From the IMG/VR virus record IMGVR_UViG_2671180254_000011: a DNA stretch of 5,068 nt; one strand, written 5' to 3'. The notes under the pieces were generated by a model, which worked only from the letters and a program-made list of their open reading frames with translations, was not told the origin of the DNA and searched no databases. Origin of the DNA: a virus. Lineage: Duplodnaviria > Heunggongvirae > Uroviricota > Caudoviricetes. Made by a program: the position numbers and the translations under genes. Shown here one piece after another: positions 1-5,068 of the stretch; the stretch's first letter is position 1, and every line of letters starts with the position of its first letter.

Positions 1-71
1 AGGAAACAACATGTTGGGTGGAGCGGACAATCCAAATGGCGAATTACCGTCTTATATCACTGGCGCTGACA

Positions 72-300
72 ATATCAATGATTTTCTGGTGCGTACCGGG
101 TTGAGAAGCGGTGTAAGTGAACTGCAGTTGCCATGTTTTACGGCAGTGAGAGCAGAGATAGCGCTGATGTCCGGCAGTGCCTTTTGCCGTTACGTACCAC
201 CCCGTCAGTAGCTGAACAGGAGGGACAGCTGATAGAAACAGAAGCCACTGGAGCACCTCAAAAACACCATCATACACTAAATCAGTAAGTTGGCAGCATC
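72..300 (-). mobile_element. insA: IS1 left-end fragment, truncated (about the first 229 bp of IS1: terminal inverted repeat plus 5' part of insA), oriented on the minus strand
   Basis: Reverse complement of 278-300 is ggtgatgctgccaacttactgat, the IS1 left inverted repeat as I recall it. Reverse complement of 72-300 follows the IS1 left end through the insA region; the ORF-track fragment [37 protein letters not shown] matches InsA. Similarity to IS1 stops abruptly below position 72. There appears to be a 1-nt insertion relative to the IS1 I recall near 165-190, shifting the insA N-terminus out of frame. Confidence 0.85.
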
Positions 301-410
301 ACCGAAGTGGTAAAGAAGATAATAAAGAATAATATTTAGGGTTATAGGTCTTAGCCCATTTTAAATGGAAGGCAGACATGCAGCCATGCATACTTCGCAT
401 GGCAACATAA

Positions 411-752
411 TTATTTAGACAAACTATCTAATTTTTGCGTCGCTTTTTGTGTTAGGTCGCTGTAACTGATAAACCCTACGTTAGCACCTACAATTAACAC
501 TAAGAACACTAAGCTGCATATGGATAGAGTGGCAGATTTATGCTTATGGAAAACAAAATATGCTACTATTGCACTTAATATGAAGGAAATGAATAGAAAT
601 ATAGATGTTGATGTTTTTAGATATTTTTCAGGAAATAATGGGTGAGCAATAATGTATACAAGATTAAGTAGTATATAAATTGCTACCGGAATGAAAATCA
701 TGCTCCAGTGTGTATCTTTTTTGGGAGGGATTGGCTGCAAATAATCAGACAC
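411..752 (-). CDS. hypothetical small integral membrane protein (113 aa, three predicted transmembrane segments); function unknown
   Basis: 114-codon open frame in very AT-rich DNA, where stop codons are frequent by chance. Three hydrophobic stretches: WSMIFIPVAIYILLNLVYIIAHPLF, SIFLFISFILSAIVAYFVF, LSICSLVFLVLIVGANVGFI. Same strand as, and 82 bp downstream of, the 835-1212 ORF. Start is ambiguous: GTG at 752 or in-frame ATG at 701, neither with a strong Shine-Dalgarno. Confidence 0.55.
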   Translation of the reverse strand: MSDYLQPIPPKKDTHWSMIFIPVAIYILLNLVYIIAHPLFPEKYLKTSTSIFLFISFILSAIVAYFVFHKHKSATLSICSLVFLVLIVGANVGFISYSDLTQKATQKLDSLSK

Positions 753-834
753 CGTTTTTCCATCAGTTTCAAGAAGAATTACTAGATCTCTTACTTCACC
801 ACTGACTTGAGTGCATCCTTAGTAGTAATGTTAA

Positions 835-1212
835 TCATTTTTTCCCTCCAAATACGATGCCCTCTACGTCTTTGGAAGCTTTTTGTGATGACCACTCCTC
901 TGAATCAGGTGATTTAATTAAAAATATTGTATCTCCATCAAAAATCGTATTTGTTCCGTAAAAATTCACATTTGATAGATCACCACCAAAAACCCTCTGC
1001 CCACTCGAGGTAATTGCCTCACCTAATTTAGTAAAATTACCAGCAATAGATGATTTTCTTTTTCCACTTCTATTCAAAGTGGCTTTAATTACACCACCAC
1101 CATCCTTAGAGTTAAATAATTGAATGTCCACTCCAGCAGTTGGTTGTATATATTTTGAAAGCTCTTTCTTGAACTTGTTAATATATTTATCTTTGTTTTC
1201 TTTGTTGGTCAT
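835..1212 (-). CDS. hypothetical soluble protein (125 aa), lysine-rich N-terminus, glycine-rich core; function unknown
   Basis: 126-codon open frame in AT-rich DNA. No hydrophobic signal peptide or transmembrane segment. First gene of an apparent two-gene minus-strand unit. I do not recognise the sequence (MTNKENKDKYINKFKKELSKY...GIVFGGKK). Confidence 0.55.
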   Translation of the reverse strand: MTNKENKDKYINKFKKELSKYIQPTAGVDIQLFNSKDGGGVIKATLNRSGKRKSSIAGNFTKLGEAITSSGQRVFGGDLSNVNFYGTNTIFDGDTIFLIKSPDSEEWSSQKASKDVEGIVFGGKK

Positions 1213-2158: not shown

Positions 2159-2356
2159 NNNNNNNNNNNNNNNNNNNNNNNNNNNNNNNNNNNNNNNNNN
2201 NNNNNNNNNNNNNNNNNNNNNNNNNNNNNNNNNNNNNNNNNNNNNNNNNNNNNNNNNNNNNNNNNNNNNNNNNNNNNNNNNNNNNNNNNNNNNNNNNNNN
2301 NNNNNNNNNNNNNNNNNNNNNNNNNNNNNNNNNNNNNNNNNNNNNNNNNNNNNNNN
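2159..2356. other. run of 198 N (assembly gap or masked sequence)
   Basis: Uninterrupted N characters, seen directly. The run falls inside ybcO and removes the first 7 codons or so of rusA. Confidence 0.99.
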
Positions 2357-2698
2357 TTACCCTGGCCTCCGAGCAATAACCGCTATTACCGCCATAATCG
2401 CGGGCGCACACACATCAGCGCAGAAGGGCAGGCATACCGCGATAACGTCACCCGAATCATTAAAAACGCAATGCTGGATATCGGCCTGGCTATGCCAGTG
2501 AAAATCCGTATTGAGTGCCACATGCCGGATCGCCGTCGCCGTGACCTGGATAATCTGCAAAAAGCCGCTTTTGACGCACTCACCAAAGCAGGTTTCTGGC
2601 TGGATGATGCTCAGGTCGTTGATTACCGCGTTGTGAAGATGCCTGTTACCAAAGGTGGGAGGCTGGAACTGACCATCACCGAAATGGGGAATGAATGA
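2357..2698 (+). CDS. rusA: RusA Holliday-junction resolvase, 5'-truncated by the gap (113 of about 120 codons visible)
   Basis: Frame beginning at 2357 translates [30 protein letters not shown]...[14 protein letters not shown] then stop at 2696-2698. This matches my recollection of E. coli RusA from residue 8 onward almost exactly. Confidence 0.88.
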
Positions 2699-2835
2699 TG
2701 TTTGAGTTTTATATGGCAGAACTTCTTCGCCACCGCTGGGGGCATCTGCGCTTATATCGTTTCCCCGGTTCTGTTTTGACCGATTACCGAATACTGAAGA
2801 ATTACGCCAAAACCCTGACAGGAGCAGGAGTATGA
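2698..2835 (+). CDS. ylcG: YlcG-like small protein (45 aa)
   Basis: Manual translation from ATG 2698: [45 protein letters not shown], stop 2833-2835. Start overlaps the rusA stop (TGATG). Matches DLP12 YlcG as recalled. Confidence 0.7.
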   Translation: MFEFYMAELLRHRWGHLRLYRFPGSVLTDYRILKNYAKTLTGAGV

Positions 2836-2920
2836 AGTCAGAGATAACAATCAACTAATACTGTTTTGTTGATTTTTGCTTGTAATTGGCGTTCTGGTCT
2901 GATTTTTGTGGAGTAAGTTG

Positions 2921-3304
2921 ATGCGTGATATTCAGATGGTTCTTGAGCGTTGGGGAGCGTGGGCGGCTAATAATCATGAAGATGTGACCTGGTCGTCCAT
3001 TGCCGCCGGTTTTAAGGGATTAATTACTTCAAAAGTAAAATCTCGCCCGCAATGTTGTGACGATGACGCGATGATTATTTGCGGGTGCATGGCCCGTCTG
3101 AAAAAGAACAACAGCGATTTGCACGATTTATTAGTAGATTATTATGTAGTCGGTATGACATTCATGTCACTGGCAGGTAAGCATTGCTGCTCTGATGGTT
3201 ATATCGGGAAAAGGTTACAGAAGGCTGAGGGCATAATTGAAGGGATGTTAATGGCATTAGATATCCGGTTAGAGATGGATATCGTTGTTAATAACTCTAA
3301 TTAA
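2921..3304 (+). CDS. quuD: Q-family late-gene antiterminator (phage 82 / DLP12 QuuD type, 127 aa)
   Basis: ATG at 2921 with GGAG 7 nt upstream. [33 protein letters not shown]...DIVVNNSN matches QuuD as I recall it. The ORF-track start at 2906 is a TTG-initiated upstream extension that I do not favour. Confidence 0.85.
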
Positions 3305-3319
3305 TATGCCAATTGTTTA

Positions 3320-3355
3320 CTAAAAATTATTAAAAATGGGGCGTTGCAACGCCCC
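3320..3355 (-). terminator. candidate rho-independent terminator for minus-strand (porin) transcripts
   Basis: GC-rich perfect palindrome ggggcgttgcaacgcccc (3338-3355). On the minus strand it is followed by the T-rich tract atttttaataattttta; on the plus strand it is followed by A-rich sequence, so it looks unidirectional. Confidence 0.5.
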
Positions 3356-3443
3356 CAAAAATAAAGGGTAATATATAACAGAAGGTTTATATAGTTAGAA
3401 GCAAGGTTGTGCTCCTAAAGGAAGTGGCTTGAGGGAGCCACTT

Positions 3444-3482
3444 ATATGTTGGGGAGGCAAAGCCTCCCGCAACATATCTTTT
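3444..3482 (+). terminator. candidate rho-independent terminator for plus-strand transcripts leaving the quuD region (tR'-like position)
   Basis: Arms atatgttggggaggc (3444-3458) and gcctcccgcaacatat (3462-3477) pair with one bulged C around an aaa loop, followed by cttttagt. Lies 11 bp from the porin stop codon. Confidence 0.45.
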
Positions 3483-3492
3483 AGTAATCAAA

Positions 3493-4575
3493 TTAGAACT
3501 GGTAAACCATACCTACAGCAACGATATCATCGGTAGCAACGCCAGATGCTTTCGTGAAATCGCTCTTATCAATCAGGTTGATTTTGTAATCAACAAAAGT
3601 GGACATATTTTTGTTGAAGTAATAGGTTGCACCTACATCAATATATTCAACCAGGTCCTGATCACCCCACGCACCCAAGTCTTTTCCTTTAGATTGCAGG
3701 TAAGCAACGGACGGACGCAGACCGAAGTCGAACTGATATTGTGCAACTACTTCGAAGTTTTGTGCTTTGTTGGCAATATGGTTATTACCAAAAACAGTCA
3801 TGTTCTGGGTTTCAGAATAGGTGGTAGCCAGATAGATGTTGTTCGCATCATATTTCAGACCAGCTGCCCATACTTCAGCATTTTGACCAGATGCATTCAG
3901 GCTGTTGTTACCGTAGATAACCTGATTATTAGTGCGGTCAGATTTAGCATAGGTTGCACCTACACCGAATCCTTCATACTCATAAGTAGTGGAGAAACCG
4001 AAACCATCACCATTAGCTTCAGTTACGTCAGTGCGGTCATTTTTACCCTGATACTGAGCAGCAAAGTTCAGACCATCAACCAGACCAAAGAAGTCGTTGT
4101 TACGATAAGTTGCAACACCAGTGGTGCGACCAGTCATGAACACATCTGTTTGAGTCCAAGTGTCACCACCGAATTCTGGCAGGACGTCAGTCCACGCACC
4201 GATGTCGTATGCTACACCGTAGTTACGGCCGTAATCGATGGAGCCGTAGTCACCGAATTTCAGGCCAGCGAAGGCAAGACGGGTTTTATCTTTGGAGGAA
4301 CCTTGAGATTCAGCGCGGTTGCCTTTGAATTCATATTCCCACTGACCGAAACCAGTCAGTTGATCGTTGATTTGGGTTTCACCTTTGAAGCCAAGACGGG
4401 CATAAGTAGTATCACCATCATCTGCATCATTAGAGGAGAAGTAGTGCTTAGCATTAACTTTCCCGTACAGATCCAGCTTGTTACTGTCTTTATTATAAAT
4501 TTCAGCTGCCTGAGCAGACATCGCCATCAGTACTGATGCAGCTACAGCAGAAATTGCCACTGTTAATTTTTTCAT
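3493..4575 (-). CDS. nmpC: outer-membrane general porin of the OmpC/OmpF/PhoE family, prophage-encoded NmpC/Lc type (360 aa precursor with signal peptide)
   Basis: Start assigned to ATG 4575 ([23 protein letters not shown] then [17 protein letters not shown]...), a typical signal peptide with AQA-A cleavage motif. Porin hallmarks are present: [58 protein letters not shown]-terminal VYQF. The 20-codon N-terminal extension in the ORF track (to 4635) is rejected. Confidence 0.9.
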
Positions 4576-4854
4576 CGTGAGCCCTTTTTTTGAACTATTA
4601 TTAAAAAATGATGTCATTGCGCGATAAATATTCATCTAATCAATGTGATTATTTCAAGATGTAAGTTTTGGTTTCTCGTTTGATTTGTGAAGTAGATCTC
4701 TATTTTTATCTGAACTTTTTTCTATCGAATCCTATTCATGGCTCTTGACTGAATAAAAATAAATCTATTAGCCAATTTATATTAACGGCTGTTATTTATA
4801 AGTGCTCTATAATTTGAAGGTTCAATTTAAACCGGCTAAAAATAACACTGGAAA

Positions 4855-4876
4855 TTATTTGTTGGTTATTTGTTGG
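4855..4876. repeat. 11-bp tandem direct repeat (ttatttgttgg x2)
   Basis: Exact adjacent copies at 4855-4865 and 4866-4876, in the AT-rich region about 280 bp upstream of the porin start. Confidence 0.5.
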
Positions 4877-4965
4877 GATTTGCTTATGTATTTGTAGTGG
4901 TGTTTTCAATACTCGGTAGCATTCTCGCAAATATCATTTAGTGGTTTACGTACGTAAAAAATTGG

Positions 4966-5068
4966 GGTAATGACTCCAACTTATTGATAGTGTTTTATGT
5001 TCAGATAATGCCCGATGACTTTGTCATGCAGCTCCACCGATTTTGAGAACGACAGCGACTTCCGTCCC
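4966..5068 (-). mobile_element. IS1 right end (right inverted repeat and adjacent 3' region), element continuing beyond the window end
   Basis: 4966-4988 reads ggtaatgactccaacttattgat, the IS1 right inverted repeat as recalled. The following about 80 nt (gtgttttatgttcagataatgcccgatgactttgtcatgcagctccaccgattttgagaacgacagcgacttccgtccc) match the complement of the IS1 3' region, so the IS1 body including insAB lies to the right on the minus strand. Confidence 0.9.

Follow-up and report, generated by a model that had tools for sequence, protein, structure and literature searches.

An IS1 copy in a Shigella sonnei defective prophage very probably interrupted by a nested IS21

We analysed a 5,068-nt stretch of DNA from an IMG/VR virus record (IMGVR_UViG_2671180254_000011; Caudoviricetes), hereafter the window, whose left edge carries what looks like a truncated copy of IS1. 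We are highly confident that this IS1, situated in a defective prophage of Shigella sonnei, is interrupted by IS21, and that the structure is a nested transposon rather than an IS1 truncated by deletion. In the course of events that we propose, IS21 would have entered the IS1 of a DLP12-like defective lambdoid prophage at IS1 positions 228–231, in the same orientation as its target, duplicating the sequence ATAT. The remaining part of IS1 (the 3’ end of insA, insB and the right inverted repeat) would then lie past IS21, some 2.1 kb leftward of the window. The apparent truncated IS1 is in this way resolved as a standard IS21-in-IS1 nesting, fixed in several S. sonnei genomes. IS1 and IS21 are each a textbook insertion sequence, and published, gene-called S. 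sonnei genomes already contain them in this nested form. The use of the result lies in correcting pseudogene and IS annotation and in adding another case of IS-driven genome decay in Shigella, with little beyond annotation.

As the IS1 reference we used IS1A of E. coli K-12 (NC_000913, 19796–20563). Window positions 72–303 correspond on the minus strand to IS1A positions 231–1 (98.7% identity, 2 mismatches, 1 gap, E = 1.8e-114; BLAST), so that the likeness to IS1 (IS1A/IS1B, E. coli K-12, Shigella) takes in the left inverted repeat, the start of insA and the first 231 bp. The original prediction, made from the letters of the window, had placed the minus-strand left end of IS1 at positions 72–300, which agrees with the alignment except that the element ends at 303. 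The left terminal inverted repeat, GGTGATGCTGCCAACTTACTGAT, lies at about 281–303 (−), and the reverse complement of window 303–281 is identical to the start of IS1A. The GTG start codon of insA is at 246–248 (−), and 72–303 includes the insA promoter and insA codons 1–59. An ORF at 44–277 (−) matches the Pfam families PF03811 and PF12759 (Zn_ribbon_InsA, HTH_Tnp_IS1); a look-up of its 77-aa product returned no record. The insB/DDE domain and the right inverted repeat are outside the window and are present after IS21, as part of IS1 228–768, in two other S. sonnei assemblies described below.

Similarity to IS1 had been predicted to stop abruptly at 71/72, and a multiple alignment (A1) shows an exact break at this point: IS1 switches to IS21, and the window and IS1A are unrelated beyond it. 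The last IS1 base is position 231; the earlier estimate of about 229 was close, and its placement inside insA was right. The leftmost 71 bp, which had been judged not to be IS1, are a terminus of IS21. Here the reference was the complete IS21 in tssC of E. coli FDAARGOS_943 (L002), which is bounded by its own target duplication; window 1–71 (−) equals positions 71–1 of this element at 100% identity (71/71, E = 1.7e-32; BLAST). IS21 carries istA (transposase) and istB (helper ATPase), and the 71 bp in the window comprise the left terminus, which begins TGTCAG, and the untranslated leader in front of istA, with the element extending leftward beyond the window. In the IS1 sense the junction reads ...CATTGATAT|TGTCAGCGCC..., and the ATAT at window 72–75 (IS1 228–231) represents one copy of a 4-bp IS21 target duplication whose second copy lies beyond IS21, outside the window.

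The original prediction had itself allowed that positions 1–71 might be a continuous piece of a divergent IS1 variant, with no break at all. Some E. coli records (H16, H17) do match window 1–307 unbroken and are annotated ‘IS1 family transposase’. However, the sole record of these that was examined, H17 (L001), itself has IS21 nested in IS1, at a site 1 bp from the present one, and positions 1–71, wholly identical to IS21, have no similarity to IS1A 232–302. We consider the chance that these positions are divergent IS1 to be vanishingly small.

The interruption of IS1 by IS21 can be followed beyond the window in sister assemblies. The IS1/prophage junction string retrieved one IMG/VR contig (L006), which is identical to the window over 1–2158 and 2357–5068, bar positions 180 and 195, and which runs 1134 bp further left into istA of IS21 before the contig ends. 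In the complete S. sonnei chromosome CP022457.1 (L009), BLAST gave the order IS1 1–231, IS21 1–2130, IS1 228–768, and the order is the same in S. sonnei AGRD01000055.1 (L010). These assemblies contain the full 2130-bp IS21 at the locus, with TGTCAG/TGTCAA termini and a 4-bp target duplication. The two junctions in CP022457.1 read ...CATTGATAT|TGTCAG (GATAT|TGTCAG) and GTTGACA|ATATGGCC (TTGACA|ATATGG), with ATAT (IS1 228–231) on both sides of IS21. In that chromosome istA (390 aa; rve, Mu-transpos_C) and istB (IstB_IS21) are intact; in AGRD01000055.1 istA is split into two ORFs. Among the 12 IS types reported from S. sonnei 53G is IS21 (PMC7373316).

These arrangements bear directly on how the IS1 homology came to end at 231. 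The original prediction had called the IS1 truncated and had offered two causes, an IS1-associated deletion or an insertion into IS1. Taken by itself, the window shows just the abrupt end of IS1 homology, and IS-mediated deletions are abundant in S. sonnei genomes (PMC7373316), both of which would be in keeping with an IS1 cut at 231 by a deletion, whether or not IS1-mediated, positions 1–71 being DNA brought alongside. We nevertheless regard such a deletion as very unlikely, because the adjoining DNA starts exactly at the terminal base of IS21, and because IS1 228–768 and the 4-bp duplication are found at the other IS21 terminus in two sister assemblies. Foreign DNA that begins at the IS21 terminal base, IS1 that resumes at the other terminus, and a target duplication together argue for transposition and not deletion. 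The insertion half of the prediction was therefore borne out, with IS21 as the inserted element, while the deletion half and the notion of a truncated IS1 were not, since the rest of IS1 follows the full 2130-bp IS21 in CP022457.1 and AGRD01000055.1. We infer that the far side of IS21 in the window’s own genome is probably the same as in the sister assemblies.

Contigs tend to break or to be mis-joined at IS copies, and among the assemblies of this locus L006 and L012 end within IS21 and a draft contig (L011) looks collapsed, which raised the question of whether the IS21/IS1 junction is an assembly chimera of two repeated elements. We hold this to be extremely improbable. The InsA’–IS21 read-through protein of L006 (67 aa; InsA codons 1–59 plus nine IS21-encoded residues) is on record in 6 NCBI Shigella sonnei contigs, so that the junction is present in six independent contigs (3/6 >1 Mb), and the full-length IS21 is flanked by a proper 4-bp target duplication. 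In the draft contig just mentioned, CWUL01000003.1 (L011), positions 4794–5561 contain only 60 bp of IS21, then IS1 sequence, then mutS, and we read this arrangement as a repeat-collapse assembly artefact rather than a real variant of the locus.

Outside these S. sonnei assemblies, the genome contigs of GTDB species representatives gave no exact match to the IS1/prophage or IS21/IS1 junction patterns. The junction was likewise absent from a plasmid search, which gave two-piece matches only, with IS21 at other IS1 positions. Some E. coli matches seemed to run past the IS1 end into the flank of the window (H22); these are unrelated IS1 copies.

As a type of arrangement, IS21-in-IS1 nesting is recurrent and ordinary. 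The E. coli plasmid pVTB432v-2 (L001 942–3303) carries IS21 in IS1 at positions 229–232, with the target duplication TATG, and the chromosome of E. coli CFS3313 (L003 620–3521) carries it at 447–450, with the duplication CCGG. In both the two elements have the same relative orientation as here, and the two nestings are independent events that differ in IS1 isoform and in genomic context. Further insertions of IS21 in IS1 at other spacings were seen in E. coli plasmids and chromosomes as two-piece matches (H1–H21). All IS21-in-IS1 nestings examined were co-oriented with IS1, although the search joins same-strand pieces only.

The duplications accompanying IS21 were 4 bp long in three cases (ATAT, TATG, CCGG) and 5 bp in one (GATAT). 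The 5-bp case is the IS21 in tssC of E. coli FDAARGOS_943 (L002 1430–3580), and 5-bp repeats have been described for an IS21 family member (PMC10122671). GATAT also precedes the left end of IS21 in the IS1 target. A target specificity of IS21 for ATAT(C) was considered and set aside: of the matches to the IS21 end, about 19% continue beyond the terminus, roughly the chance level. Two independent IS21 insertions 1 bp apart, in the same orientation and in different IS1 isoforms and replicons, together with the GATAT that the unrelated tssC insertion shares, could hint at a local hot spot for IS21 in IS1 around 228–232, an idea that we rate as unlikely. Were it true, IS1 would be a preferred landing pad for IS21, perhaps as read-through from the insA promoter drives istA.

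The nesting leaves this IS1 inactive on its own. Its insA is split at codon 59, and 2.13 kb of IS21 would lie between the left inverted repeat on one side and insB with the right inverted repeat on the other; the split copy can make neither InsA nor InsAB’ and is dead as an autonomous element. In the sister genomes neither IS1 inverted repeat has been lost, so that InsAB’ supplied by other IS1 copies might in principle still move the 2.9-kb composite in trans. Transcripts from the insA promoter would be expected to continue into istA, because IS21 is co-oriented with insA.

The insA reading frame is in fact broken twice, first by a +1 insertion and then by IS21. The copy here thus differs from IS1 not only in being split by IS21 at 228–231 but also in a +1 frameshift at insA codon 23, and the extra base would be a redundant second lesion. 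The original prediction had suggested a 1-nt insertion shifting the insA frame, and comparison with IS1A and with the same locus in related assemblies upheld it: window 179–180 (−) reads CC, against a single C in IS1A and the sister assemblies, equivalent to an extra G after IS1 position 123/124. The InsA sequence ...NGK-STAGHQ... is altered after K22, leaving a 36-aa ORF at 138–248 (−) whose product bears the name “IS1 family transposase [Shigella sonnei]”. A synonymous substitution in codon V18 (GTG>GTA; T at window 195, minus strand) is linked with this +1 allele.

The two changes are likewise paired in IS1 copies of other assemblies, at loci unrelated to this one (L007, GCA_900485195.1; L008, GCA_900158505.1), and the +1 allele is a genuine IS1 haplotype. 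It may have come to this copy by gene conversion or through an assembly consensus effect. The possibility that the insertion at 179/180 and the change at 195 are a consensus or assembly artefact, created by reads from other IS1 copies, carries only slightly less than an even chance. In its favour, five other assemblies of the locus (L006, L009, L010, L011, L012) lack both changes, the same pair is known at the other S. sonnei IS1 loci just named, and the window’s version, with the +1 allele beside the IS21 junction, found no match in viral, metagenome or genome contig collections. Gene conversion between IS1 copies within one strain would, however, explain the linked pair equally well.

The outer ends of the IS1::IS21 composite tell of a further rearrangement. 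One end adjoins the final 29 nt of gene P, the lambdoid replication gene (window 304–332, plus strand), which is cut by the IS1 left end; the other, in CP022457.1, adjoins cscK/cscB, where the cscK 3’ end comes first, then cscB and then a torI-containing prophage remnant. The outer flanks in that chromosome, GAAGTGGTA and CGCTTGCAG, contain no matching 8–9 bp IS1 target duplication, a point on which this copy departs from IS1. In the same chromosome cscK is split by IS1, and the cscK 9-mer CGCTTGCAG, a 9-bp duplication, is present a second time as its reverse complement, at the left inverted repeat of a further IS1 that is inverted and lies 3.57 kb away. Joined to that copy, in opposite orientation, is the cscK 5’ part (L009 12848–17475, left of the window).

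Flanks of this kind are the footprint left when an IS1 has inserted in cscK and inverted IS1 copies then recombine. One simple inversion between the two oppositely oriented copies in CP022457.1 was considered and rejected: it should have given two reciprocal 9-mer pairs, of which a single one is seen, and the missing pair implies at least one more IS1-mediated event. The window sits in a DLP12-like prophage that IS1 recombination reshuffled against the csc sucrose locus. The original prediction of a rearrangement breakpoint was thus misplaced at 71/72, where the junction is that of a clean transposition, and fits instead at the IS1 outer ends, where the 3’ end of P meets one side and cscK the other.

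On the phage side (window position 304 and beyond), the DNA and a lambdoid prophage of E. coli A7 are collinear, and it is this collinearity that identifies the P fragment: window 304 is position 4002 of the E. coli A7 sequence (L005), in which the P coding sequence occupies 3317–4030. The AT-rich two-gene cassette of the window is found at the same place in E. coli A7, where no IS1 is present. This shared position without IS1 shows the cassette to be native prophage cargo, not brought by IS1. One of its genes encodes a predicted 142-aa membrane protein (window 411–842, minus strand) that is intact in E. coli A7 (L005 4109–4537); in the window copy the start region is lost and in-frame stops occur near 822–833, and what is left is a 113-aa ORF that starts with GTG. 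No Pfam family matched the adjacent 125-aa ORF (835–1212).

A second IS1 enters the window at its right edge, where positions 4966–5068 (−) are the right end of the element (IS1 768–666), with 100% identity to IS1A and in the same orientation as the first copy. In sister assemblies (L006, L009) this IS1 is a complete 768 bp flanked by the 8-bp duplication CCAATTTT (window 4958–4965), and it is a simple insertion. It sits between an nmpC-like porin gene and essD. The two IS1 copies form direct repeats bracketing a 4.66-kb ninB-rusA-Q-porin segment. Within this segment, the run of 198 N at window 2159–2356 stands for 244 bases in L006 and L009, covering the 3’ part of ybcO and the 5’ part of rusA, so that length is not preserved in the window.
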